A DNA stretch of 64,000 bases from Fibrobacterales bacterium. GTDB lineage: Bacteria; Fibrobacterota; Fibrobacteria; Fibrobacterales; JAOPTW01. Position numbers and translations under genes: made by a program. The notes beneath the pieces are model-generated. The model was not told the DNA's origin, did not search any database, and saw only the letters and a list, made by a program, of their open reading frames with translations. The stretch lies in the NCBI GenBank assembly GCA_051532055.1, contig JAOPTX010000032.1:1-64000 (forward strand), read 5' to 3'. Position 1 is the stretch's first letter. Every line of letters starts with the position of its first letter. Below are positions 12,599-56,878 of the stretch, piece by piece.

Positions 12599-12707
12599 TT
12601 TAAAAGCTCAGAAATATACCTCCTACATCGTTAAAAAATCCTCACCGTACCAAAGTACGCCTTTGGACTTTTTGCCTCGTATGAGACACATTTCTGAGCT
12701 TTTTAAA
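12599..12707. repeat. Nested palindromic element (REP/MITE-like)
   Basis: Terminal IR TTTAAAAGCTCAGAAAT / ATTTCTGAGCTTTTTAAA; inner AAAAAATCC/GGACTTTTT and CGTAC-CAAA-GTACG. Confidence 0.65.
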
Positions 12708-12945
12708 TATTCAATTTGAACCATAATTAAGCTACTGGCGGTAATTTTGACCGTTTTCGGACACAATTTTTCCTTCAAATATTTTTTCTAAGACTCACCA
12801 CTTTATAACAATCATATCGTAAAAAATCCTCACCGTACCAAAGTACGCCTTTGGACTTTTTGCCTCGTATGTGACACATTTCTGAGCTTTTAAATATTCA
12901 ATTTGAACTATAATTAAGCTACTGGCGGTAATTTTGACCGTTTTC
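12627..12945 (+). repeat. ~130-bp direct repeat, two copies (12627-12758 and 12816-12945)
   Basis: Copies differ at 4 positions (2 substitutions, 2 single-base indels); 57-bp spacer. Confidence 0.95.
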
Positions 12946-39383: not shown

Positions 39384-39962
39384 TTATAGCGAGAAGTAAA
39401 GCTCCAAAGAAAGAGAGGTCACATCAAGAACCCCAATTGACTCATTCTCAAATGCATAGAGTAAGTAGGATTGGAGCGTCCCTGCGCTCACTGAAAACCC
39501 CAACTCATCCACGACGCCAACCCCCTCCATAAGGAGTACCGACAGCCCTGTATAGTAGCCAATACGAATACCCGATGGCCAATAATAGGATCTAAACCGG
39601 TCGTTTACAATAACATCATATTGGGGCGACACAATTGTATTCACCGCAACATGGGGTACAATACCGATGGAGCTTCCTAATACAGACCCAACATTAATGG
39701 TTACTGGTTCAAATCGCCCTTTTATTGCAACACTATGCACCGACACTCCCCCCAAAGCTTTGGGCGTGTACCCGTAAGAGATAGATCCATAGAGATGGTT
39801 CGTAAAATAGCCATAGCCAACACCTACCGACACCACCCCCTGATGCCCTGCATATTGTACTAAATAACGATCCGGCGCATACCATGTGTCGTTTGTACCA
39901 ACAGAACCCTCAGACGCCATTACGACACCAACGCATACAAAGACAAGTATGACCCACTTCAT
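39384..39962 (-). CDS. Outer-membrane protein, hypothetical
   Basis: Signal peptide; WY.PD...QYAG..G.VSVG.GY; YGYTP. Confidence 0.65.
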   Translation of the reverse strand: MKWVILVFVCVGVVMASEGSVGTNDTWYAPDRYLVQYAGHQGVVSVGVGYGYFTNHLYGSISYGYTPKALGGVSVHSVAIKGRFEPVTINVGSVLGSSIGIVPHVAVNTIVSPQYDVIVNDRFRSYYWPSGIRIGYYTGLSVLLMEGVGVVDELGFSVSAGTLQSYLLYAFENESIGVLDVTSLSLELYFSL

Positions 39963-40780
39963 CAGAACCCCAGCTCTTGATAGGTGTAGGCACTATCGTT
40001 AAAATTAAGTAGAAGCACAGAATGGCCCGTTACATCGTCTGCTACAAGATATTGAGTCGAACTTTCTGGATAAAAAGCATGATTATTAAAGGAGTGTGTA
40101 TGCCCATGCACCGAGAGCATGACGTCTTTTTCATCTAAAAGTGCAACATACTTAATTTCATCATCGGAAGTAAACTGATCCTTCCACGGTGGCACATGCG
40201 AAAAGAGTACCTGTCCCTTACACTCAACCCCACAAAGGGTAGGATCAGAAAGAGACTGTTCAAGCCATGGAAAATTAGGCGCATCATCAAAATGCCACCC
40301 ATTGGTGTTAGCAAATACAAAGTGATAGCCCCCATAGGTAAAGGAGTAATCAAGTGCACCGAAAGAGTACTCATAGACCGCAATCCCCTCTGCAACACTT
40401 TCATGATTCCCAATAGTAGTGACATAAGGAACAGTAAGCTTATCTATTGCATCAAAAAAGAACTCATACTCTTTGAGGAGTCCAAACTTTGTAAAATCAC
40501 CCGGTACCACTACAAAGTCTACCCCCTGAAGCGAATTAACGAATGAGACCATCTTATGTAAATCATCAATGAATTGATGAGAATCTGTTATCACTGCAAC
40601 CGTGACTCCTTCCCCTTTAGGAGTCGTAGAAATTATTTTTCCTACTTCTCGCTGAGTGAGGTTGTGCATAGCTCTGTTCGAACTTTCAACCGTATAGGGA
40701 GTATATTCAAACATTTCACAATTCACAAGTAACAGTACAGCTAACCCAATAGTAAAGTACCTTTTGAATGTATTCATCAT
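39962..40780 (-). CDS. Calcineurin-like metallophosphoesterase lipoprotein
   Basis: Lipobox LVNC; DSH, GDFT, GNH, HVPP, HGHTH. Confidence 0.9.
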   Translation of the reverse strand: MMNTFKRYFTIGLAVLLLVNCEMFEYTPYTVESSNRAMHNLTQREVGKIISTTPKGEGVTVAVITDSHQFIDDLHKMVSFVNSLQGVDFVVVPGDFTKFGLLKEYEFFFDAIDKLTVPYVTTIGNHESVAEGIAVYEYSFGALDYSFTYGGYHFVFANTNGWHFDDAPNFPWLEQSLSDPTLCGVECKGQVLFSHVPPWKDQFTSDDEIKYVALLDEKDVMLSVHGHTHSFNNHAFYPESSTQYLVADDVTGHSVLLLNFNDSAYTYQELGF

Positions 40781-40786
40781 CGACTC

Positions 40787-41362
40787 CTAAAAGGTATATC
40801 CCACATTAAATTCAGTCCATCTAAAGGTCTTATAATCATTAAGCAACAACCCATTACTTTCAAGACGAAGCTCTATGTTCTTATATTGTATCCCGGAACC
40901 AAGACGCATGTTCATGTGGAGATCTTGAGATGCATAGCGATCATCTCGGGTAAGACGTGTATGACTTACTACTGAAAGACCGGCACCTGCAATACCACTC
41001 ACTGCTAGAGATTGAGTCACCTGGTAGAAGGGCTTAACCTGAGGTGTCACTTTATATATATTTGCAATGGTTGTTGTACCCGAGCGTTCTTCCGATATCG
41101 TTGAAAATCCAACCTGCCCACCAACCGCAATACTTTTTGAGAATGAACGGTACCGATCAAAATTGACATTCTGACCCGTGGACACCCCTTTACTAAAGCC
41201 AAGTGGTGAACGCTCCCCCTCCATCATCGCATCCTCCCCCTTTAGGTCAAAAGGAACTACTCGTGTAATCCCAATAGAGATTGATGAACCGACAGGAGAT
41301 GCCGCCACAAATAATGGAAGTGCCACAAAAATTATTAGTGCTATTTTTATAAATCGTATCAT
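40787..41362 (-). CDS. Outer-membrane beta-barrel protein
   Basis: Signal peptide, amphipathic strands, C-terminal VGYTF. Confidence 0.65.
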   Translation of the reverse strand: MIRFIKIALIIFVALPLFVAASPVGSSISIGITRVVPFDLKGEDAMMEGERSPLGFSKGVSTGQNVNFDRYRSFSKSIAVGGQVGFSTISEERSGTTTIANIYKVTPQVKPFYQVTQSLAVSGIAGAGLSVVSHTRLTRDDRYASQDLHMNMRLGSGIQYKNIELRLESNGLLLNDYKTFRWTEFNVGYTF

Positions 41363-41585
41363 ACTTAGTTTCCCCAAAAGTTTTAGTCACCCCTATAACA
41401 CATGAGATGAAAAAATGTGTCACCCTTTTATCACAATGACTCTTTGAGTGTAACTTACGAAAAAGGCAACCATTAGACAATGCTAATATTGTATCATTGT
41501 GTAACAAAGTGTATCAGGGCACGATTATCAATTCACCTCTCAATAACTGAATGCGTGGCAAGTGGCAGTACCGTTGGGATACAAC

Positions 41586-44517: not shown

Positions 44518-44544
44518 AAAAAAAGGGAGCTTCGTAAAGCTCCC
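44518..44544 (-). terminator. Intrinsic terminator
   Basis: GGGAGCTT-CGTA-AAGCTCCC with U-tract on the minus strand. Confidence 0.8.
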
Positions 44545-44567
44545 CCATATTTCATTGAATTAGTCGA

Positions 44568-44780
44568 TTAAATAACCTCTACATCCACTTTTTTGATCCA
44601 AAACTGCTTTCGTCCGGTATCAATCTTTACTGCTGTAGGCTTAAGAGCCACGACCTTTGCAGCACCGGTATCATAGGGGCCCTCAAACATAACTCGATCA
44701 CCGATTTTAATATCTTGTTTTTTTCGGTTTTCTTCTTCATTTAAATCAATATCATTATCAAATTCATTTTCATCGCTCAT
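44568..44780 (-). CDS. Small acidic protein with a KOW/SH3-like fold
   Basis: SD AAGGGG before ATG 44780; IKIGDRV...G..KVV. Confidence 0.6.
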   Translation of the reverse strand: MSDENEFDNDIDLNEEENRKKQDIKIGDRVMFEGPYDTGAAKVVALKPTAVKIDTGRKQFWIKKVDVEVI

Positions 44781-44902
44781 TGTGCACCCCTTAAAAAAAC
44801 ACCTCTCTCCAGGCAAATGTAATAAAGAGTAGTAGAGAATTCCATTGTATGTAAGGTAAACTTTGGGTAACCAAACCATAGATTGAATGCATTAATCAGA
44901 CG

Positions 44903-45988
44903 TTACTGGGCAAATCTCAATGATACTGTTTCATGCCCCACTGAATCCCTCATTACATCTAAAACCTCAACCAAATACAGCCCCTTATCAGTTTGAGTAA
45001 CAAACTGCTGACCAACTGATTCTATTGTAATGTGATTCTTAGCTGGGACATGCTGAGCGTCACTCACTTTTTCAAAAAAGTTATTAAGTATCATAAAACG
45101 GCTTATATCACCTTTTTGTGTAATAGCCCTATCAACACCTAAAACATCGTAAAACTCTGTCTTCGAATAATTAAGTGAATCTTGAAGATATACATTTTCA
45201 ACTGACGCACTCAAATTCGTGCCCTCTTTCCCAGCATACTGCTTTAAAAAGTCTAGGGATGAAATCATAATGGTTGAATCGAAAGAAGTGATCATCATAT
45301 CAAGCTCACCTGATTTACTCTCAACCACTTGCCAATAAGGGTAGTTCGCATTGCTGTCAATATCAAACAGCGATTCAAATGCACCAGAGGCAAATGTAAC
45401 ATCAAAGTATTCTACTGCTTTTTGGTCTGTTGTGTCACAGTGGGTTTCTCCATCTATGTAAATTTGTTTAATAATTGATGCCCCATATGTTTCAACTCCA
45501 TATTTAATTGAATGGACTCTTGTATAAACACTTATTTTATAAATACCCGCACACAATTCCTTAGGCCTCAGTGTTACCGTTTGGGACAATACAGTTGAGT
45601 AACCTTCAACTATTGTATCTATAAAAAATAGAGAATCTATTTTTCCATATTCATCAAAATCATCATATTCGTACGTATAACCACTTGTACTTATCGGTAA
45701 TCTCTTATATGATGAATTCACACTCACTGCATGCTCATAATTGTTTTTGTGACCTTTATAAATGTCTGTTCTTGCCTCAACCACAATACTATCACCTGGA
45801 AACAAAACTGTTATTAGGGTATCTTCTTCATACTCTTTGTAATCTGTAGATTCGTCCCAACGAGTGGAATCAAATTTCATTGTTAAATAGTTACTCCAAT
45901 CCCTGTCAGGGCCATCAATCTCAGCATCAGCATTCTGAAGCTGACAACCTACCGCACACGCTGTAAGTAATAATATAATCCATTTCAT
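44903..45988 (-). CDS. Hypothetical lipoprotein, last gene of the ECF-caspase operon
   Basis: MKWIILLLTACAVGC lipobox; SD AGGAG; 10 nt after the caspase stop. Confidence 0.8.
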   Translation of the reverse strand: MKWIILLLTACAVGCQLQNADAEIDGPDRDWSNYLTMKFDSTRWDESTDYKEYEEDTLITVLFPGDSIVVEARTDIYKGHKNNYEHAVSVNSSYKRLPISTSGYTYEYDDFDEYGKIDSLFFIDTIVEGYSTVLSQTVTLRPKELCAGIYKISVYTRVHSIKYGVETYGASIIKQIYIDGETHCDTTDQKAVEYFDVTFASGAFESLFDIDSNANYPYWQVVESKSGELDMMITSFDSTIMISSLDFLKQYAGKEGTNLSASVENVYLQDSLNYSKTEFYDVLGVDRAITQKGDISRFMILNNFFEKVSDAQHVPAKNHITIESVGQQFVTQTDKGLYLVEVLDVMRDSVGHETVSLRFAQ

Positions 45989-45998
45989 ATTTAACTCC

Positions 45999-47636
45999 TT
46001 AAAAGATATTAACGGTCAAACCAACCTGAGCACCCGGCCACATATACAACCCATCTGCAACATTATAAAACCTACCGTACGAACCACCCCATGGACGAGC
46101 TAAATATATGTGATCAAAATTTGCCAACAGATTTGCCGAAGCACCAAACCAAAAACTCACCCAATTCGTCACATCCACATCAACAATTCCAGACACGCGA
46201 GCAAGAAACTCATCATGGAATTCATTGTCCCATGGTTCCGCATACCAACTAGTAGACTCACCAGCCCCATCAAACCCCATATGGCCATTTGGCTCATAAT
46301 TACAATACAACCAATACCCCTGAAGCAACCCCTTTATTGAATACCAGCCTCTATCACTGCTATACCCCAATCCAACACCACCACTATAGTTCCCCCCAGC
46401 CTTATTATAGGGGTCATAGCCAAAACTTACCATACCAAACCATGGCCCTCTCTCCATACTCACATCTATATACCAAGTACCTAACTCCGAAAATGAACTC
46501 CCGACATTCAAACGATTCTTAATAGAATCACTTTTTGTCTGCAATAATTCTGCACTCACGCTGGTGCTATCAATAATATTTTCAGTAGATACGCCTCCCC
46601 CGCGCAACCGAGTATCTTCAACGGCACTCTCAGTAAAATCTTCCTCACTCAAAATCACTCGCACCACACCCTTTAGATCTGCCGTCGCCTTTTTCCATCT
46701 CGTATCATTCTCAAGGACAACAGTATACACTTCATTAGAAAGCCCCAACTCCACTATTCTTCCTGGAGCCTTATACATCTCGGTAACTAGCGTACCATCT
46801 TTTGACTTTACAAAGATTCTCCCTGCAACATTTTTACCAAAGACAATACCCTTATCATTATTTCTCAGATCAGACATTACAACGTCTCCAGATCCAGATA
46901 GTTTCATATCATAACTCGGGTGTTGCGCCCCACCAGATGTATTTTGTGTTCTATTCAACGTTTCGTTAAAGGCAAACTGATAGGCCTCCCCTAAGGTAAT
47001 TCTCCCATCACGACTCACATCAGCCGCCCCTCGCATACCCGACACAAGATAGTGAGTAAAGAATGAACCACCAATGGCCTCAGATTCTTGAGATGCCTCT
47101 GTATTAGAACTTGAAGTAATAAATGCATAGCCCGAAAGGTCATTTGAGGCATCAACCAAAAAGGCCTGTTTGCGATACCCACCCTTCATTTGTGTTATCG
47201 CCCCCGATGCGCACGCATCAAGAATCGTCACTTTCAGTTGCGCCGGAAGCTTATCAATATCTTTTCTGAGTACTCGATAATCGTAATTATCATTTCCAAA
47301 AAAAAGACCATTCTCATTTGCATGACCTGAAAAATAAAGGACAATCTCCCGCCGATTCTTTGTGGGCAGGCCATCCAAGCGAGCAGACAGATCGGTGAGT
47401 GCACTATTGAATTTTTCGGCACTGGGCTCAAGGAGCATTGTTTGGTTCTCTTTGGGGACACCCCCAATTTCTGTGAGTACCCGGCCAACATTTTGTGCAT
47501 CAGTGTGAGCATATTTTAAGAGGTCTCGTTTTGCACCGCCGTAGTTTACGCCAACTATGATTGCGTATCGCTCAATCTCTTGTAACGCGAAGAGGGATGA
47601 ACAAAGTATTAATATAAGACTTACACCTATTTTCAT
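45999..47636 (-). CDS. Exported caspase-family (peptidase C14) protease with C-terminal beta-barrel-like region
   Basis: Signal peptide; AIIVGVN, LKYAHTDA, catalytic YFSGHA and ILDACASG, SQES..IGGSFFT; terminal GLTVNIF. Confidence 0.9.
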   Translation of the reverse strand: MKIGVSLILILCSSLFALQEIERYAIIVGVNYGGAKRDLLKYAHTDAQNVGRVLTEIGGVPKENQTMLLEPSAEKFNSALTDLSARLDGLPTKNRREIVLYFSGHANENGLFFGNDNYDYRVLRKDIDKLPAQLKVTILDACASGAITQMKGGYRKQAFLVDASNDLSGYAFITSSSNTEASQESEAIGGSFFTHYLVSGMRGAADVSRDGRITLGEAYQFAFNETLNRTQNTSGGAQHPSYDMKLSGSGDVVMSDLRNNDKGIVFGKNVAGRIFVKSKDGTLVTEMYKAPGRIVELGLSNEVYTVVLENDTRWKKATADLKGVVRVILSEEDFTESAVEDTRLRGGGVSTENIIDSTSVSAELLQTKSDSIKNRLNVGSSFSELGTWYIDVSMERGPWFGMVSFGYDPYNKAGGNYSGGVGLGYSSDRGWYSIKGLLQGYWLYCNYEPNGHMGFDGAGESTSWYAEPWDNEFHDEFLARVSGIVDVDVTNWVSFWFGASANLLANFDHIYLARPWGGSYGRFYNVADGLYMWPGAQVGLTVNIF

Positions 47637-47694
47637 ACTGTTCCCTTAGTAATAAAATCGTAATTAAGTTTTTTCTCTATTTTTTTGTGAGCGG

Positions 47695-48477
47695 TCATAA
47701 ATTACTTTTCACCTCACCCTTTACCAACACAATTTTCTCAACTTGAAATATCTCATCTTGAGTGATAGTGTTCAAAATGTTATTTTGATTTACATCCAAA
47801 TACGTGTCAACATCAAAGCTATCTGAACTCAAAACCATATAAAAGATCTCATGAGACGGCGCATCATCAAGTTGGTATGAAAAGGGAAGAAGTCGCTTGA
47901 GAGAACCCAGCTTCACCGAACTTCCATCTTCTTTTGCCAGATGATGAGTCACCACACCATTACCATCAACTGAAAATATCACGCCATGACACTTTTCCGT
48001 TACCACATACTCAAGCTGAAACTCGTCACCCGCACTCACAAGCATACTATCTCTCATAAGACTCGAACCCAACCGTGTCTTTTTGTACACATTAAGCTGA
48101 GCATCTAATCCTTTAATGCGCACAACCTCTGCTGTAGTACTCGTCATTCGACCCTCAAAAGGACTCATTGATTTATAAGTAACCGTCACCCCAAAGGCCA
48201 TAATAAGGGTTACCAATATCCCCTTAGCAAAAGTCACAAATGCAACACCCTTTCTTTTTTTATGGATACTCTTACGGTGAGCACGCTCTTGCCGAATCAC
48301 CCCCTCCATAGCCACATAGGGAAACCGCTCTCTCAGATCATGGTTATTCTGCTCCAACAATACCACACGACGCTGTAATTCTGCATCATTAGAAATTTTG
48401 CTCTTTAACTCCACAGACTCTGACTTCGAGAGATCTCCCAATAAATATTGTTCTAAAGTAAAATCATCATACTTCAT
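47695..48477 (-). CDS. Membrane-spanning anti-sigma factor with periplasmic DUF4384-like domain
   Basis: LEQYLLGDL N-terminal anti-sigma helix, single TM, RIKG, GD..QL.Y..SVDG.G.VT, LP.SY.LDDAP; overlaps the ECF stop. Confidence 0.8.
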   Translation of the reverse strand: MKYDDFTLEQYLLGDLSKSESVELKSKISNDAELQRRVVLLEQNNHDLRERFPYVAMEGVIRQERAHRKSIHKKRKGVAFVTFAKGILVTLIMAFGVTVTYKSMSPFEGRMTSTTAEVVRIKGLDAQLNVYKKTRLGSSLMRDSMLVSAGDEFQLEYVVTEKCHGVIFSVDGNGVVTHHLAKEDGSSVKLGSLKRLLPFSYQLDDAPSHEIFYMVLSSDSFDVDTYLDVNQNNILNTITQDEIFQVEKIVLVKGEVKSNL

Positions 48478-48949
48478 AAGTAAATGCCTCCCTCGAAAAC
48501 TCCTGCAATTTCTTTAACCGTTTCCTTACAGCAGGAATTGACATTTTAAAAAACATTGCAACGTCTTCTACCTTCCAGCCATCCCGATAATGCATCACCG
48601 CCATTGCTGCACTTTTTTCATCATTTCGCGATAACACTTTATTCAGAAATGACCTTTCGTTCACAATGGTCAAGGTACACTGCGCATCTGCTATGAGCTC
48701 AAGAGCGGGCTCTTCACACTTTATTTTTGAATCCCTAATCATATTCAATGCTCTATTAGTCGCCATGGTATACAGAAGACTCGAAGGTTGAGTAACATCA
48801 AGAACCTCCCATTTAGTGTGCACTGTCAAGAACGTATCATGCATACAATCCGCCGCCATCTCTTCATTTTTTAACATCGAATAACAACGCCGATATACCA
48901 TCGGACTATACTGTGTATAGAGCTTTTCGAATGTTGTTTTGTTTTTCAT
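48467..48949 (-). CDS. ECF RNA polymerase sigma factor
   Basis: FEKLY..Y...VYRRC..ML, AADCMHDTF, ATNRALN (region 2); region 4 HTH VA...S..AVRKRL. Confidence 0.92.
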   Translation of the reverse strand: MKNKTTFEKLYTQYSPMVYRRCYSMLKNEEMAADCMHDTFLTVHTKWEVLDVTQPSSLLYTMATNRALNMIRDSKIKCEEPALELIADAQCTLTIVNERSFLNKVLSRNDEKSAAMAVMHYRDGWKVEDVAMFFKMSIPAVRKRLKKLQEFSREAFTYEV

Positions 48950-48958
48950 CTATATCTT

Positions 48959-48986
48959 AAACACATGAATATGTAGAAAAGAAACC
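48959..48986 (-). promoter_or_regulatory. Putative autoregulatory ECF promoter (near-leaderless transcript)
   Basis: GGTTTC-N16-GTGTTT ending 9 nt before the ATG; no SD. Confidence 0.4.
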
Positions 48987-49337
48987 ACTTCTCTATTTTT
49001 TTTGCGAAATGTAGTAAATCACCCTATTTCAGTTATTAAACCTATCATAAACGCCGCATTAATAGACCCACCCTAATAAAAAAGGAACATTATCCCATTT
49101 ATACTTAAACATCAAAACCCCAATAAAACACTACGAACACACCTTAAACACCTTTTTAAACATTTATAGGCCAAATTGTCTCCCTTTTCTATAAACACCC
49201 ATTATCAATAAACCAATAATGTTCTAAAGTTCTTTAAACAATAAATGACTTGAATCTGAATGGCCTGTCTTTGAAACATTTGACGCTTACACACCCTCAT
49301 TCAAGCCAGCATAAATGAACAACAAAAGGAACCAATC

Positions 49338-50855
49338 ATGAAAAAAGTATTACCACTTATAGCAACCGCATCATATGCAGCATTTATGATGTCATGTCAA
49401 ATCATAACACCTACCCCTACAGAAGATCTTTTAAGTAGCTCTGCTATAGCGACTGGGGACAGCACTATCGTTTCATCAGAAACAACACTATCGTCAGCGA
49501 CTGCACTCTCGTCTTCTCCATTTGACACCATTATCATCTCTTTCTCATCTGCCGAACTTTCATCGTCAAGCGAAACTGTAACACCAGAATCAAGCAGCAA
49601 TGTAGTCGTTGTACCTGACTCAACGTTCCTCAGCTCTTCAAGTACAGAACTCTCATCTTCTGAAGTCATCGCACCAAGCTCAACCATAAGTTCATCGATT
49701 GCACTTTCTTCTGCCGAAAGTTCTTCAGCGATTGAGTCTTCATCATCTGTGGTTGTTGTAAGCTCATCTTCCCTAGAAAGCTCTTCTTCTATAGAAAGTT
49801 CATCTTCTGTCAATCCACTTCCTCCCTTTATCAATGCAAACCTTGTTAATGCAATAGACACTGCGACCCCATTTACTAATGGCGCCTCTACTAACTCACT
49901 TTACAGTAGTCAATACGCGGCATGGAAAGCATTCGACAAAGCATCACCTTCTACCCAATGGATATCAGGCCATGTGTTTCGCCCTGGAACAGGCCCTGCA
50001 AACCTCATGTACACCTTTGGTGAAGAACATAAAATTGTTGAATATCGCATCGCAAGCCGCTTTGATTCTCTCAAAGATCGCGCACCAAAAAACTGGGTTT
50101 TACAAGGGTCAAATAGCAACACGGCAACAGCTGCTGATGCAATCGATGACACACAATGGGCTACTATTGACACTCAAAACGACATCAACTCTGGCGACGA
50201 ATGGGGATCAACTGACAACTGGAAAGACACCATCGCATTTACCGTACAAACTCCAGGTATATACACCAGCTACCGCCTTTGTGTAACCGCCGTTAACGGA
50301 TCTTCTGTTGTAGATATTATAGACATGTTCCTCATGGAAGAAGCACACGCCAACATCACCATTCCAACAACTGAAACCGACACCCGCACATCATCAAACG
50401 GTACTTATGGAAGTAGCTATCCAGCATGGCATCTCTTTGACGGCGCATCTACATGGACCCAATGGATGTCAGCAAGTCTCTTTCGCCCAGGAAATGGCCC
50501 TGCCAACATAAGCTACAGCTTCGATGACGAACAAATGGTAACTCACTACACCCTTACCGGTAGATATGACAGCCTTAAAGATCGCCTCCCTAAAAACTGG
50601 ATAGTTCAAGGCACCAATAGTGCCACTGCCACTATCAATGACGCTCTTGATGCCACAACATGGACAACTGTTGACACCCGCACTGACATCACTACTGATG
50701 ACGAATGGAACTCTGAAACAAGCGTTGCCGAACTCACCCTTATGGTTACCAATCCAGGCTCATACACTACCTATAGAATTTGTATTACTGCAGTAAACGG
50801 GTCATCGATTGCTGATCTTATTGAAATCTCATTTGCAGGAATACCTGCCATCTAA
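49338..50855 (+). CDS. Lipoprotein with Ser-rich linker and two tandem discoidin (F5/8 type C)-like domains
   Basis: Lipobox MMSC; poly-Ser region; duplicated AW..FD..TQW..FRPG.GPAN..DR.PKNW..QG.N. Confidence 0.85.
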   Translation: MKKVLPLIATASYAAFMMSCQIITPTPTEDLLSSSAIATGDSTIVSSETTLSSATALSSSPFDTIIISFSSAELSSSSETVTPESSSNVVVVPDSTFLSSSSTELSSSEVIAPSSTISSSIALSSAESSSAIESSSSVVVVSSSSLESSSSIESSSSVNPLPPFINANLVNAIDTATPFTNGASTNSLYSSQYAAWKAFDKASPSTQWISGHVFRPGTGPANLMYTFGEEHKIVEYRIASRFDSLKDRAPKNWVLQGSNSNTATAADAIDDTQWATIDTQNDINSGDEWGSTDNWKDTIAFTVQTPGIYTSYRLCVTAVNGSSVVDIIDMFLMEEAHANITIPTTETDTRTSSNGTYGSSYPAWHLFDGASTWTQWMSASLFRPGNGPANISYSFDDEQMVTHYTLTGRYDSLKDRLPKNWIVQGTNSATATINDALDATTWTTVDTRTDITTDDEWNSETSVAELTLMVTNPGSYTTYRICITAVNGSSIADLIEISFAGIPAI

Positions 50856-51129: not shown

Positions 51130-53175
51130 TTAAAAGTTATATCCAATTTTACCCGAAAATTCACGACTAGATCCAGGTAGAGGGGTATCATACCCATCAT
51201 AAGCTTCTGCCATTTCATAATTTTCATTCAAAATGTTATACGCTCCAACGGTAAGACTTACCCTATCAAAGAATACTGACTCCCAATTCAACACTAGATC
51301 AACCATATATACACGGTCAAGTTCTTTGTATTGAAAATCTGGAATCCAATTACCTAGTGCATCATATTCATACCCATAATCAGCCCAGATAGCCGTACGT
51401 TCACCTACGAACCGTAGTGAGGGCGTAATATTGAGCCTATTAAATGCACGATAACTCATGCTGAGTGTTGCTTTATGTTCTGCAATCCCAAGCTTCCTAT
51501 CGGTATTTAATGGGTCTCTAAAATTCTCAGCTACCGAACCCCAGTTTCTCGCAAATGAATAATTTGATATCACACTTATATCTTTCCATTTATAACGAAC
51601 CGACAGTTCTGCACCATAGGAGCCCATACTTTTTGAATTAAGGTATAGATTTTGTTCAGCACCAGCATCCCATGTATAGATAATTGCATCACGTATTTGC
51701 ATCCAAAAAATATTTCCCTGAATCCATAAATCACCCATAGGATGGTACCCGAGTTCCGCTTCAGTTATCCAGGTAAATTCCGGCTTTATGTCTGGATTTG
51801 TCGCTACATTTAATATCGCTGGATCCCGTTGAGCCCCACTGAGCAATAATTTTAAATCCAGGTCATTTGTCATAGATCCAGTATAAGCAAGCCGAGGTAC
51901 TATAGAATTTCCATAATTCTCATTATTATTTCCTCGAACTCCTGCGGTAAATGTACCAACACCCGTACGAGCAATCAGCTGCGCGTACAACGCTCCAGTA
52001 TAGCTATCAGTATAATTATCCCCATTATAGGTAGAACTCAAGTAATCCCTTCCTATTATAAAATCATATGTAATCCCCGACAACAATTTAACATCATCAT
52101 TAATATCAACATCTACAGGTATATCCAGTGAGTATTTTTCACTACGGTCATCAATCTGCCAATCAGCATACACTGACCCATCAGAATACAACACCTCATT
52201 CGCATTCCAAGGCTTCTGTTGCTTGTATTGTATGGCCGGGTTCAACCTCAATGACGGAGATATATCCAATAAATAACTGACCTTCGCAGCATAACTGATA
52301 AACTCTGTATGATAATCAGGTACATCATATGTTGGATAAGGAAACTGGATATAATAATTATCATAGAATGCATTGATTGTAAATCCTCCGTATTCTGCCT
52401 TAACTAAAGCATTTGAAACTTTAGTCGACCCATTATCATCGTCGCTCAGATCTATATTTGCACCATATATATCATGTAGCGTTCTATCCGAATAATTCCC
52501 TTGCTCCATGCTTATAAAGGCAGAAACATTCCCCTTCTCACTCTTTGTACCAAGAAAAACATTACCGCCAGTGCGTCCTGTCATTTTTTCTGTTCTAGAA
52601 TAATATCCATTTGCATTCACATTGAGTTCTTTTGATGGATTTTTAGTTATTACCGACACAACAGCCATCTCTGCAGCCCCACCATATTGCACAGACCCAG
52701 GGCCCCGGATAATTTCAACACGCTCTATCATATCTGCACTAAAATGTTGTCCAAATGCAATTGACGCATACATTTCATCATTTACATCTATACCATCAAT
52801 AAGGAGAAGAACCTTTCCTTCACTCGCCCAATTACCCCGTATTGCAACCGAACGAACCCCTTGTAAATCCAATAAGAATTCAAAGCCAGGCACAAATTGC
52901 AATATCTCTTTTAAATCACGCAAGCCTCTTCTTTTAATCTCTTCACTGGTAACAACCGTTACAATTCCCGGTGATTCTCGCTGCGTTAGTGCGAACCCTC
53001 CTGACGCTACATTAATTGACAAATTCATAAGAACATCTAAGTCCATCTCTATGAGGTCATCCAAAGAAACGTCCTCCACCCTAATATTATCTACTTCTTG
53101 CCCCATAAGTGAAGTGGCCACAAGTAAGGTAGCTGCAATAGCGTGCACCAATTTATTCATTAATTTCATTTTCAT
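51130..53175 (-). CDS. TonB-dependent receptor-like outer-membrane protein (plug plus barrel)
   Basis: ESPGIVTVVT, VLLLIDG, IERVEIIRGPGSVQYG, L.PE, GAYNILN, terminal YNF; start one of 53187/53175/53169. Confidence 0.9.
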   Translation of the reverse strand: MKMKLMNKLVHAIAATLLVATSLMGQEVDNIRVEDVSLDDLIEMDLDVLMNLSINVASGGFALTQRESPGIVTVVTSEEIKRRGLRDLKEILQFVPGFEFLLDLQGVRSVAIRGNWASEGKVLLLIDGIDVNDEMYASIAFGQHFSADMIERVEIIRGPGSVQYGGAAEMAVVSVITKNPSKELNVNANGYYSRTEKMTGRTGGNVFLGTKSEKGNVSAFISMEQGNYSDRTLHDIYGANIDLSDDDNGSTKVSNALVKAEYGGFTINAFYDNYYIQFPYPTYDVPDYHTEFISYAAKVSYLLDISPSLRLNPAIQYKQQKPWNANEVLYSDGSVYADWQIDDRSEKYSLDIPVDVDINDDVKLLSGITYDFIIGRDYLSSTYNGDNYTDSYTGALYAQLIARTGVGTFTAGVRGNNNENYGNSIVPRLAYTGSMTNDLDLKLLLSGAQRDPAILNVATNPDIKPEFTWITEAELGYHPMGDLWIQGNIFWMQIRDAIIYTWDAGAEQNLYLNSKSMGSYGAELSVRYKWKDISVISNYSFARNWGSVAENFRDPLNTDRKLGIAEHKATLSMSYRAFNRLNITPSLRFVGERTAIWADYGYEYDALGNWIPDFQYKELDRVYMVDLVLNWESVFFDRVSLTVGAYNILNENYEMAEAYDGYDTPLPGSSREFSGKIGYNF

Positions 53176-55954
53176 GATCATCCTCATTTTCTTCTGCTCT
53201 GTTACGCTTTTCCAATTTCTTAAGCTCTATAATCTTTAACCACTTCTCTAACGTTTTAATAACCGAAACTGAATTAATTGGTTTTGGTATGTAATCATCC
53301 ATGCCTGCATCGAGACACTTCTCTTTATCGCCTTCCATTGCGTTCGCTGTCATTGCTATAATGGGCAACTCCGGGTTTAAAATATCTACACCTTTTTGTC
53401 GAATAACCCGTGTTGCCTTATATCCATCCATTATAGGCATCTGGACATCCATAAAAATCAAATCGTATTCTTTCTCTTTGAGAAGCTGTAATGCCTCTTC
53501 GCCATTACCTGCAATATCAGGAACAATACCCGCTTTTTTCAATACACCTATAGCCACTTTTTGATTTATTTTATTATCCTCAACCAACAAGAGACGCACG
53601 CTGGACCGAATATTTTTACTGATACTGTACTGAGTAATAATCTCTTTCTTCTTAGTGTTCCCTGGATCGACTTCGAGACCCAATGCCTCTTCTAAGCATT
53701 CATGAAGTTCACGCGCAAGAACCGGTTTAGTTAAATAGGCCGCAAAACCCATTTCTGAAAGTCGACTTACATCACCACGCTTCCCCATCGAACTCATCAT
53801 AATCAGAATAGTATCTGCAATTTCTGGGTCATTTTTAATTGCCTCACCAACCATTTCCCCATCCATTCCCGGCATCTGCATATCCAGAATTGCCACAGTA
53901 TATGGACTCCCTTTCTGCTGCGCCTCCTTTAACATAGCAATTCCAGCGGGGCCACTTTCAGAAACATCGCAGGTTACATTCCAGGCACCCAACTGTTTTT
54001 CAACTACCTTTCTATTCGTGTGATTATCATCTATGAATAGAATTTTTTCACCTTCAATATCTTTTCGATGAGCAGGAGTATAGTGTTTATCCGATTTATT
54101 CAACTCGATAGTAAACCAAAAGAGTGACCCTGTTGAACCATTATGACGACACACTTCTGAACCATGCTCTACAGGGCTCTCTACCCCTATCTCGCCATTC
54201 ATTAAAGCCACAAGCTGTTTCGAAATGGCGAGACCAAGACCAGTACCCCCAAATTCTCGGGTCGTTGAACTATCTGCCTGAGTAAATTTTTCAAAGAGCA
54301 TCTCTTGTTTTTCTTTAGGAATACCAATCCCTGTATCCCGGACCCCAATTCTTAACCGAATCGCACTTCCAATATCTTCCTCAAATTGGATACAAACAAT
54401 GACTTCACCCTGTTCTGTAAACTTAATAGCATTACCCGTAAGGTTTGTAACCACTTGTCTCAGGCGTCCTGGATCACCTTTTACATAGACGGGTACTTCA
54501 TTATCGATGCTACAAATAAATTCAACACCTTTTTCATCTGTCCTAAAGGCCATAGTATTTGCAAAACTTCCCAGCATTGAATGGAGATCAAAATCTATCT
54601 CTTCGAGGTCCAACTTGCCCGCTTCAATTTTTGAGAAATCAAGGATATCATTAATGATGGATAGGAGTGACTCGGCACTACTATGTACCGACTCTGCATA
54701 CCCTCTCTGCTCATTATCCAATGATGTATCGAGAAGTAATTCATTCATACCTAGAACTCCATTCATTGGAGTTCTAATCTCATGACTCATTGTTGCAAGA
54801 AAATCACTCTTGGCTCTACTTGCAGCCTCTGCCGCTTCAGTCTGTTCAACAAGAAATTTATTGAGGTCACGAATACGTTTTTCTTCAGTGAGATCCATAA
54901 AGACAAACACAACCCCCGTCACCACTCCCTGATCGTTGCGTATGGGGGCCCCGCTATCACTCATAAACTTTACGTCACCACGAGGCGTTAGAATCACTGT
55001 TTGATTTGAAAGTTTTGTTATAACACCTGCCCTCAATACTATTCCTACTGGGTCAGCGATCCGCTCCCTCGTCGTTTGGTTTTCTAGGGTCAATACCTCA
55101 TCAAAAAAGAGACCTTTTGATTCATCTATTTTTAAACCCACAAGTTCTTCTGCTGCAGGATTCATTCGCTCTATTATGCCTTTAATATTTGTGGTAATAA
55201 CCGATTCACCGAGGGAATCAAGAGTCGTACGCAAGTCACGTTCTTGCTCCTCAAGTTCAACTTTTGCATCATGTATAGTGTCCATGAGTGCATTAAAGTT
55301 GTCATAGAGCACCCCTATCTCATCCGTACTCTCTTTTTCAATATGTCGTGACTCATGCTCTCCTCTAGATAACTGTTCCATAAACTGAACAAGTTTTATA
55401 ATTGGAGCCGTTACTGATCGCTGTAATATATAGGCAAGAAGAAGACTCCCACACACAAGTCCCAATAATAAGAGCAACAAGGTCATGATATTTGATCTGT
55501 TTTCGGCATCCATTTTATTCGTTGAAGCAACAATATAAACCAACCCTATCCGTTGCTCTTGCTCAAAAATTGGATAGAACATGTGGAGTTCATCTTCTTC
55601 AAACCGATGTCCCGCCTGTATGTTTTTCTTCCCCTTGGGAAATTCGACATCGCCTCGGATATATTCAGAAAATACCGTAGAGTCCGCCGTATAAACGAGT
55701 ACTCGCTCAATCACATCAATTGATTCCATCGAATTGAGGTAGCTTTGAGCCACTTCACTATCATCAAACATCAAGGGAACGGTCACATATCGGCTGACCA
55801 CTTTTGCTTGTTCCATTATTGAGTTAACAAAATTGTTTCTTAAATTGGTGGCACTACGAATACTCAGTACCGTAAAACCAAGAGAAAGAGTCACAAAACT
55901 GATCCCCACTATGATCAGTAATAACTTTTTCCGTATAGAGATATTACGAATCAT
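53153..55954 (-). CDS. Hybrid kinase: CHASE8-like-HAMP-PAS-HisKA-HATPase-REC-REC
   Basis: [38 protein letters not shown], two D.QMP receiver motifs. Confidence 0.93.
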
Positions 55955-56506
55955 TTATCGAGCCCCCTGCATTTTTTTGAGATAACTCAAAAGGAAGGAA
56001 CTTGCCTTAAGCCCCGAAGCCGCCATAGCCCCGGTATTCATATTAAAACGAACTTTATTATTCTCCTTGTAAAGCAGTACGTGCGCCCCCTTGTCTAATA
56101 ACTCGGGGTTTTCAGTAACAATAAGTGCATGATACTGCTTGTTTTTCTCAAGAAGAAGGTCAAAATCACTCTCACTTTTGGGAGCAATATAAATGACATG
56201 TGCCGTAAAAATAGAATCAACCAAAGAAAGTTTTTGGACCGTTGTTACCCTTTTTTTGATGGTACGACCTTCCATAGCCTTTTCAATCCAAGAAGAAAGA
56301 GGGGAGTCTCCTAATATAAATACGCTAAATTTGTCAGTTTGATCACTCTCGCTCCAAGTAATTAAGGAAACAACCTTTATGAGATAAGCTGCTTTAAGCT
56401 TATTTTCACCTGAATTTTGGCCGAAACTTGTTGAAAATGCCAATAACACTACAATGAGTAGTATGACTCCTCGTGAGTGAGGTTTTTTCTTAAAGTATCC
56501 GTTCAA
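55955..56506 (-). CDS. YfiR family (DUF4154) periplasmic protein
   Basis: SD AGGA before TTG 56506; ENKLKAAYL....W, KVRFNMN..A..GLK.SS.LL. Confidence 0.85.
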   Translation of the reverse strand: MNGYFKKKPHSRGVILLIVVLLAFSTSFGQNSGENKLKAAYLIKVVSLITWSESDQTDKFSVFILGDSPLSSWIEKAMEGRTIKKRVTTVQKLSLVDSIFTAHVIYIAPKSESDFDLLLEKNKQYHALIVTENPELLDKGAHVLLYKENNKVRFNMNTGAMAASGLKASSFLLSYLKKMQGAR

Positions 56507-56878
56507 ACAGTATCCTAATAGAGCGGGTAGAATTCTTGGATATTTTACCAAACATTTCTCAATAAATGCCAATTTTAGCCCATATTCTCTAAAATACCCC
56601 ACATTGCTTACCTTTAACAAGCATATAATAGGCTTTAAACATTTTTCCCTATCAGAAAGGACCCCTGTAACACTCTAGCATCTTTCTAGTATTTCCTTGA
56701 ATTTCAACGATTTATGCTCACCATACAGCGGTAACAAATTGTGAACGACCAATGCAATGTAAGCTAGATTTAACTATGCCCCCCTTCCTAATTATGCTAT
56801 TTTTGAATTACTATCTAATAACCGTGGATCTCAGTCCTATTTCTCACCCCTTAAGAGAGTCCACATTAAGGAGAATCT

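Follow-up and report, generated by a model that had tools for sequence, protein, structure and literature searches.

We analysed a 64,000-nucleotide stretch of a Fibrobacterales genome (assembly GCA_051532055.1, contig JAOPTX010000032.1, positions 1 to 64,000), hereafter the window, with respect to a four-gene operon on its minus strand. The operon encodes a sigma factor of the extracytoplasmic function (ECF) type, a predicted single-pass anti-sigma factor, an exported C14 caspase and a lipoprotein. A preliminary description of the same DNA had noted four co-oriented genes, and we confirmed both this layout and the spacing: the sigma and anti-sigma open reading frames (ORFs) overlap by 11 nucleotides (nt), followed by gaps of 58 nt and 10 nt. 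The genes and the features assigned to them are as follows (aa, amino acids; Ig-like, immunoglobulin-like).

48467..48949, minus strand: ECF sigma factor, 160 aa; Pfam Sigma70_r2 and TIGR02937; region 4.2 reads SIPAVRKRL.
47695..48477, minus strand: predicted single-pass anti-sigma factor, 260 aa; hydrophobic helix at about aa 78-101, Ig-like beta-sandwich at aa 126-253.
45999..47636, minus strand: exported C14 caspase, 545 aa; assigned by Pfam, alignment and predicted structure.
44903..45988, minus strand: lipoprotein (Cys15) of a very rare family, 361 aa; accompanies short-barrel caspases of the same clade.
48960..48988, minus strand: predicted self-promoter of the operon, at the position of the family motif; ends 10 nt 5' of the sigma ATG.
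48109..48120, minus strand: codons for R120-I-K122-G123, candidate site-1 cut after Lys122, from KG conservation and a coil in the model.
44900..46950 (ends approximate), minus strand: likely swapped cassette of Ig-like domain, barrel and lipoprotein, from a drop in identity to the congeneric locus L001.

The sigma factor matched Sigma70_r2 at 46.3 bits (cut-off 24) and TIGR02937 at 53.8 (cut-off 42.9), and its region 2 together with its short length places it among ECF sigma factors. Region 4 was detected by Pfam only as HTH_23 (E 0.062), and it can be aligned with relatives bearing PF08281. A Peptidase_C14 search, suggested as a check in the preliminary description, gave a PF00656 match of 52 bits against a cut-off of 21.4 over aa 23-243 of the caspase, while no Pfam family was matched by the anti-sigma factor or the lipoprotein. 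The single hydrophobic stretch of the anti-sigma factor (windows starting at aa 76-86) and the hydrophobic N-terminus of the caspase agree with the single-pass topology and the export proposed earlier.

The arrangement of the first three genes was found to recur widely. Among 78 genome loci, the anti-sigma gene lies directly 5' of the caspase gene in 70, and the sigma gene is present as well in 61. Among the eight misses are contig ends, a gene that is split, a locus with changed gene order and a second copy of the caspase gene; loci L044 and L064, in which upstream DNA is present and no anti-sigma gene was detected, also belong to them. Within a set of 80 metagenome loci, the anti-sigma gene was found in 59 of the 60 with at least 1 kilobase (kb) of upstream sequence, and all three genes in 51 of the 52 assessable loci with at least 1.75 kb, so that the triplet conservation on which the preliminary description had staked its proposal holds in both collections. 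Hosts of the module include Fibrobacterota, Myxococcota, Acidobacteriota, Latescibacterota and Gemmatimonadota; the anti-sigma factor is present in 68 of 151 sampled genomes of the phylum, and the closest named relative is a Fibrobacterales genome. The loci are the best caspase matches and many of them are kin, so these counts do not represent independent events. The recurrence of the triad across many phyla indicates that the arrangement is not due to chance.

In six myxococcal loci (L045, L053, L063, L066, L072 and L078), the promoter motif, the anti-sigma gene and the caspase gene are present and no sigma gene was detected, making anti-sigma factor and caspase the tightest pair. The window genome itself carries seven caspase paralogues, each located after a sigma gene, with a profile-detected anti-sigma gene between the two in five operons and an anti-sigma-like ORF at that place in the other two. 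From gene content, the core of the module is these three widespread genes, and the lipoprotein is a clade-specific addition outside it. A second caspase-like gene was also observed shortly 3' of the triad in L004, L010, L011, L012, L014, L015 and L026 (several Latescibacterota and one myxococcal locus).

The caspase consists of a signal peptide, a catalytic domain, an Ig-like domain (aa 263-337), a disordered linker (aa 343-371) and a barrel (aa 374-544). The dyad that had been described as intact, H105 in SGHA and C142 in DAC, is invariant in an alignment of 61 homologues and likewise in 54 of 54. Structure searches with Foldseek returned metacaspases, MALT1 and caspases as the top matches of the caspase domain, placing a His-Cys dyad on a caspase fold. 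A sequence search of the Protein Data Bank gave a single weak metacaspase match. D46 and D140, which we take to form the S1 pocket for a basic P1 residue as in metacaspases, are invariant in the homologue alignment too, consistent with a pocket that accepts basic residues. Metacaspases have been described as specific for Arg and Lys (PMC3501461). In the exposed loop after the catalytic Cys, the consensus is T-R-x-K-G-G with K151 invariant, and R345-G346, ahead of the barrel linker, is invariant in 61 sequences. Both K151-G and R345-G346 fall within low-confidence or disordered regions of the model, which was built from a 61-row alignment (mean predicted local distance difference test score, pLDDT, 69.9; predicted template modelling score, pTM, 0.42).

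The tail of the caspase, noted before as strand-rich and ending in Phe, has eight predicted antiparallel strands between aa 374 and 544 and a terminal Phe, and its Foldseek matches are NspA, OprF and OmpA. The earlier suggestion of a tether to the outer membrane is thus supported as a predicted eight-stranded barrel of the OmpA/NspA type on a protein with a signal peptide. An eight-stranded barrel holds its N-terminus on the periplasmic side and has no channel for a passenger, and the caspase should therefore face the periplasm. Separately, a caspase-less exported protein of 323 aa (G000:C7:142199-143170 and L232:2074-3045) consists solely of that half of the long-form caspase which holds the repeat and the barrel. 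It has the family promoter upstream in both congeners and is possibly a decoy or a free receptor.

In the anti-sigma factor, the membrane helix is followed by a variable linker and a periplasmic beta-sandwich that is well modelled (pLDDT 87). Fold searches with this domain gave generic Ig-like matches only, the best with a Z score of 8.9 and a root-mean-square deviation of 2.5 over 95 aligned residues, among many ties. The cytoplasmic domain contains no zinc motif of the ZAS type, and there is no Cys among the first 100 residues. A DUF4384 search, also suggested in the preliminary description, gave a divided answer: PF14326 was not matched by the window anti-sigma factor, weak matches were obtained for 7 of 30 relatives (best E 0.00062), and DUF4384 occurs in 24-33% of the members among its Atlas neighbours.

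At the end of the unstructured linker, in a coil just ahead of the first strand of the model, lies Lys122-Gly123. KG is present at this position in 101 of 103 unfiltered anti-sigma factors, R-x-K-G in 88 of the 103, and KG in all 63 from metagenomes. We relied on these unfiltered counts because the 54 rows of our alignment A3 (53 relatives after motif, unknown-residue and redundancy filters) had been selected on the KG motif, making its 54/54 circular. Cleavage after Lys122 would leave the membrane helix with a stub of about 20 residues, and the window genome contains a full-length gene of the RseP family (Peptidase_M50). The idea that the caspase serves as site-1 protease thereby gains a candidate site in the linker and a potential partner for the second cut.

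We next considered the promoter of the module. The motif GT[GA]ACA-N16-18-GT(G)T[TC], summarised as GT[GA]ACA-N16/17-GTGTT, is found upstream of the sigma gene in 64 of 75 loci, against 0.12 expected from shuffled sequences, often about 10 nt 5' of the start codon. For metagenome loci the figure is 50 of 54, where 0.16 would be expected. In the three family-f4 genomes examined, it precedes a TonB-dependent receptor gene in all three and heads an ExbB/ExbB/ExbD/TonB operon in two; one of them also has a DUF4249-like lipoprotein gene with its own copy of the motif. Up to 600 bases 3' of the caspase gene, the motif occurs in 13 of 127 loci (0.14 expected), and ten of these 13 copies precede the same type of TonB receptor. 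A copy was also found within the window.

41397..41423, minus strand: family-type, unrewired promoter; heads the separate operon 39384-41362, with site and operon kept in G001.

This operon codes for a metallophosphoesterase lipoprotein (Metallophos) and for two proteins predicted to lie in the outer membrane. It is likely read by a canonical paralogue, G000:C32:147598-148089, and not by the window sigma factor. G000 and G001 both keep the motif before operon 39384-41362, the caspase-less barrel protein and an NAD-binding protein. From these targets, the output of the canonical module is predicted to be outer-membrane uptake and envelope proteins, and the TonB-receptor and ExbBD-TonB genes headed by the motif in relatives point to uptake rather than defence. 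The same genes (a TonB receptor in three relatives, ExbB/ExbD/TonB in two) disfavour the earlier notion of an envelope cue in the sense of envelope stress.

The motif is partly palindromic, and we also considered it as the site of a homodimeric repressor. As the main reading this was rejected, since the palindrome continues in only 19 of 119 sites and the window copy has changed in one box only. A word common to the upstream regions of the sigma and caspase genes, AAAAAATAGAGAA, was dropped as it is not kept in L001. In a sigma sub-clade (G000:C16:85448-85930, L129 and L132), region 4.2 reads SEVG or SEIG and the upstream sequence GTATC[AG]C ... CGTT, possibly a third promoter code.

The window copy departs from this family pattern in two places at once. 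Its -35 box is GTGGTT in place of GT[GA]ACA, with the -10 box GTGTT kept, and region 4.2 of its sigma factor reads SIPAVRKRL where the family has SVSGVRKRL. L001 of the congener has the same promoter variant and the same change in region 4.2, and the promoter variant occurs again at G000:C13:17448-17475; a canonical paralogue of the same genome keeps SVSG and GTAACA. Among 120 sigma homologues, 113 have SVSG, three SIPA, one SISA and one SVNG, while two misparsed rows print as SVSG. The SIPA and SISA sigma factors form one clade with full support (100/100) on a long branch, and its placement is unsure because this branch meets L091. No third genome with the variant sigma factor was found among 296 of the phylum, and a metagenome scan with the sigma factor was also empty; the variant promoter pattern gave 106 viral matches. 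The window copy is likely a rewired, insulated duplicate in which the -35 box and the recognition helix have both changed.

The copy of the variant promoter on contig C13 belongs to what a deletion has left of another copy of the operon (G000:C13:15789-17476, minus strand; L124): a sigma stub of 29 codons, the tail end of an anti-sigma-like frame and an intact lipoprotein paralogue. No counterpart of this remnant was found in G001. By its promoter, the remnant would leave an orphan lipoprotein under the window sigma factor. The variant pattern is not enriched across the genome, and the predicted regulon of the window sigma factor is therefore its own operon plus the orphan lipoprotein gene only.

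Divergence from the congener is confined largely to one end of the operon. Protein identity to L001 is 88% for the sigma factor and 95% for the catalytic domain. The Ig-like domain is only 47% identical, the barrel 29% and the lipoprotein 29-37%; neighbouring housekeeping genes reach 97-98%. At the DNA level, identity drops to 37-57% between about 46950 and 44900, is mostly 76-95% outside and returns to 89% after. In the five other operons with a G001 orthologue, the sigma, anti-sigma and caspase genes are 77-98% identical; of their linked lipoproteins, three show 79-85% identity and one 43%. Compared with the window caspase, the protein P0002 is closer than the congener in the Ig-like domain (64% versus 47%) and yet further away in the catalytic domain (79% versus 95%), a mosaic pattern. 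Judged from these identities, the input end of barrel and lipoprotein was likely exchanged as a cassette. The preliminary description had overlooked that the window copy is likely a rewired paralogue whose end of barrel and lipoprotein was exchanged.

The lipoprotein has the lipobox AVGC, with Cys15 invariant in all five family members. The earlier assignment as a lipoprotein therefore stands, but the module does not include it as a conserved fourth gene: among 1.84 billion representatives its family accounts for five clusters, and 2 of 296 genomes of the phylum contain it. One outside member, P0125, comes from the same source and the same contig size (8276) as the short-barrel caspase P0003, which suggests that lipoprotein and short-barrel caspase travel together. 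A DUF4249 identity was an Atlas lead (12% of one cluster) that Pfam did not confirm.

We lean towards a mechanism in which a periplasm-facing caspase on an eight-stranded barrel cuts the anti-sigma factor at Lys122-Gly123 and an RseP-like protease then frees the sigma factor. A surface cue would act on the barrel, the lipoprotein perhaps taking part as co-receptor, and the caspase would become clustered or activated. It may process itself at K151-G in the loop and at R345-G346, the latter of which would free it from the barrel. Cleavage of the anti-sigma factor after Lys122 would remove the Ig-like domain, the leftover stub would be cut within the membrane by the RseP-like protease, and the freed sigma factor would transcribe from its own promoter. 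Gene order, conservation, motifs and the divergence pattern were observed directly, the folds and the topology are predicted, and the cleavages, the signal and transcription are what we infer. The occurrence of the same basic-Gly word in the anti-sigma linker and in the caspase loop supports the caspase as the protease that cuts the anti-sigma factor.

Several observations weigh against this mechanism. The C-terminal half of the catalytic domain (aa 143-259) is poorly modelled, with a pTM of 0.42 for the whole model. Within loci, no co-variation was seen between residues flanking the candidate cut in the anti-sigma factor and the sites of the caspase (p = 0.78 and 0.91 by shuffling), and the window caspase has Q149 in the loop where 52 of 54 have Arg, although its anti-sigma factor retains R120. 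KG lies three residues ahead of the first strand and could have a structural or docking role. A strict lipobox was found directly 3' of the caspase gene in only 8 of 72 loci by a crude test, so that a lipoprotein co-receptor is not general. The search for the variant promoter gave 6 matches versus 6 in the control, and its three copies share descent. A complex prediction with caspase aa 19-350 and the periplasmic part of the anti-sigma factor scored 0.00 with controls that did not fold, and is evidence for neither side.

The caspase gene also lies under the promoter of the sigma factor, which fits an output equally well. The caspase-barrel protein would then process envelope proteins (itself, the lipoprotein, receptors) after a housekeeping site-1 protease has freed the sigma factor, and KG would serve structure or feedback. 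Such a role is favoured by the place of the caspase inside a sigma-led operon, by the lack of co-variation within loci, and by the caspase-less barrel relative under the family promoter, showing that barrels can be plain regulon members. By contrast, the adjacency of anti-sigma and caspase genes in the six loci without a detected sigma gene, the basic-Gly word common to both proteins, and the retention of a sigma gene, an anti-sigma gene or anti-sigma-like ORF and a caspase of its own in seven of seven paralogous operons weigh against an output, and we consider this explanation unlikely. The predicted regulon, with its TonB receptor and ExbBD-TonB genes, resembles that of cell-surface signalling, and this suits a scheme of binding without cutting in the manner of FecA and FecR. 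The R-x-K-G linker, a pseudo-substrate or inhibitor in this scheme, would dock in the active site of the caspase, and a pull through the barrel, driven by the signal, would expose the anti-sigma factor to other proteases. There is a parallel in Haliangium ochraceum (H. ochraceum), where, in the available text, the PCaspase/PCi pair features an inhibitor that is also a substrate (bioRxiv 10.1101/2023.06.23.546230). However, the His and Cys residues are invariant (61/61 and 54/54), indicating that catalysis is under selection, and we rate binding alone somewhat below the output role.

A switch for defence or cell death that senses contact with phage or predators, similar to DdvA/DdvS or Csx29-Csx30-RpoE, would explain the hypervariable barrel and lipoprotein at the window locus as the mark of an arms race, and caspase-clan proteases do govern sigma factors in defence systems. 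We nonetheless regard it as improbable: PADLOC gave 0 matches for six proteins, the neighbouring genes are metabolic, the window contains no CRISPR array, and the canonical targets are predicted to serve uptake and the envelope. The independence from CRISPR proposed in the preliminary description agrees with the lack of an array and of PADLOC matches, for a cas search limited to the window. Returning to cleavage by the caspase, we tentatively extend it to a broader picture, which may well prove wrong. In it, such modules would be widespread trans-envelope receptors, in which barrel and lipoprotein activate a tethered, self-releasing caspase that cuts its anti-sigma factor, and new channels would arise through cassette swaps and a rewritten sigma/-35 code. 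The window locus would be a new channel in the making and a natural orthogonal circuit from protease to transcription.

Other features around the operon were recorded as well. A terminator-like hairpin follows a 70-aa gene located after the lipoprotein gene.

44523..44546, minus strand: terminator-like hairpin 3' of the 70-aa gene; sites of this kind are no more frequent in the region than chance predicts (7 versus 8.1 expected).

The 70-aa gene (44568-44780) has an acidic N-terminus and is well kept in G001; a longer ORF call from 44879 probably has the wrong start. A divergent lipoprotein gene at 49338-50855, encoding two repeated domains and a linker rich in Ser, has at least two paralogues in the genome and no Pfam or NCBIfam match. 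At 51130-56620, a TonB-dependent receptor gene is flanked by genes for a small exported protein and a hybrid sensor kinase, the three apparently forming one operon, and a near-perfect direct repeat of about 130 bases with a spacing of 187-188 bases was found at 12632-12945.

For most bacterial caspases, neither a substrate nor a role beyond defence is known. The module described here offers a named substrate, the bond Lys122-Gly123, a promoter and a predicted regulon, all testable in cultured myxobacteria or Fibrobacter. If the proposed mechanism is true, regulated intramembrane proteolysis would gain a new class of site-1 protease, one that is joined to an outer-membrane receptor of its own and has uptake, not death, as its output. 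The change of -35 box and recognition helix as a pair, together with the swapped input cassette, would then illustrate how switches multiply without cross-talk.

Signalling by Fec and by RseA/DegS/RseP combines an outer-membrane input, a periplasmic anti-sigma factor, two-step proteolysis and an uptake-type regulon. The window module resembles FecA/FecR/FecI and RseA/DegS/RseP in its proposed outer-membrane input, periplasmic anti-sigma factor, two-step proteolysis and uptake regulon. Whereas FecA is a TonB transducer and DegS a PDZ serine protease, the input of the window module is a predicted eight-stranded barrel with a fused protease; the anti-sigma factor gave no FecR match. Motif evidence for a sigma factor driving TonB uptake genes comes from relatives only (3/3 and 2/3) and was not found for the window copy. 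By its sequence, the module would work like regulated intramembrane proteolysis and cell-surface signalling, yet it lacks the features specific to those families.

Similar in composition is DdvS/DdvA, an ECF sigma factor with a single-pass anti-sigma factor, for which a caspase-clan site-1 cut of a periplasmic linker followed by RseP is proposed in the available text (PMC11506125). According to the same text, RseP removes DdvA in Myxococcus xanthus after loss of the periplasmic domain, and DdvA carries a CHAT protease within the anti-sigma factor as well as a zinc domain, and controls CBASS and CRISPR. Unlike DdvA, the window module has a separate C14 enzyme on a predicted outer-membrane barrel and an anti-sigma factor without zinc motif; in place of a periplasmic TPR-CHAT region, this anti-sigma factor has an Ig-like domain within its 260 aa. 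A caspase-clan protease acting on a sigma module is likewise known from the type III-E Csx29-Csx30-RpoE and type III-B PCaspase/PCc-sigma systems. In the accessible portions of the two reports, Csx30 is cut by Csx29 and one group of Csx30 C-terminal domains is DUF4384 (bioRxiv 10.1101/2022.08.17.504292), and PCaspase cuts a sigma factor and an inhibitor in a CRISPR context (bioRxiv 10.1101/2023.06.23.546230). As described there, these systems are triggered by CRISPR, through RNA or a cyclic oligonucleotide, and have no exported, barrel-anchored protease. The type III-E combination of TPR-CHAT, Cas7-11 and an array was not seen here, since Pfam gave no CHAT match, PADLOC none at all and the window no array, the rest of the genome not having been searched for cas genes.

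The sigma factor also recalls ECF25, which in the available description has its anti-sigma gene in position +1, often with DUF4384, and includes Deltaproteobacteria and Fibrobacteres (Casas-Pastor 2021, PMC7826278). Unlike the window module, ECF25 has a stated promoter of GGAAC/GTC (subgroups s1 and s2) and no caspase in the context listed there (PMC7826278); our family motif reads GT[GA]ACA / GTGTT and not GGAAC (-35)/GTC (-10). Our literature search, with most subscription journals and bioRxiv supplements outside its scope, found no mechanism for this operon. Operons of sigma-70 and metacaspase genes have been listed in Myxococcus, Anaeromyxobacter, Haliangium, Sorangium, Ralstonia and Fibrobacter (Asplund-Samuelsson 2012, PMC3501461). 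From the portions of that survey at hand, they very probably belong to the same gene family, in the same phyla, as the window module, and those portions give no anti-sigma factor, barrel anchor, cut site, promoter, regulon or mechanism for them (PMC3501461). The gene cluster itself was thus already known; what the analysis adds is the family promoter, the changed -35 box and recognition helix of the window copy and the likely cassette swap, and with the candidate cut site and the predicted uptake regulon these open the question to direct tests.

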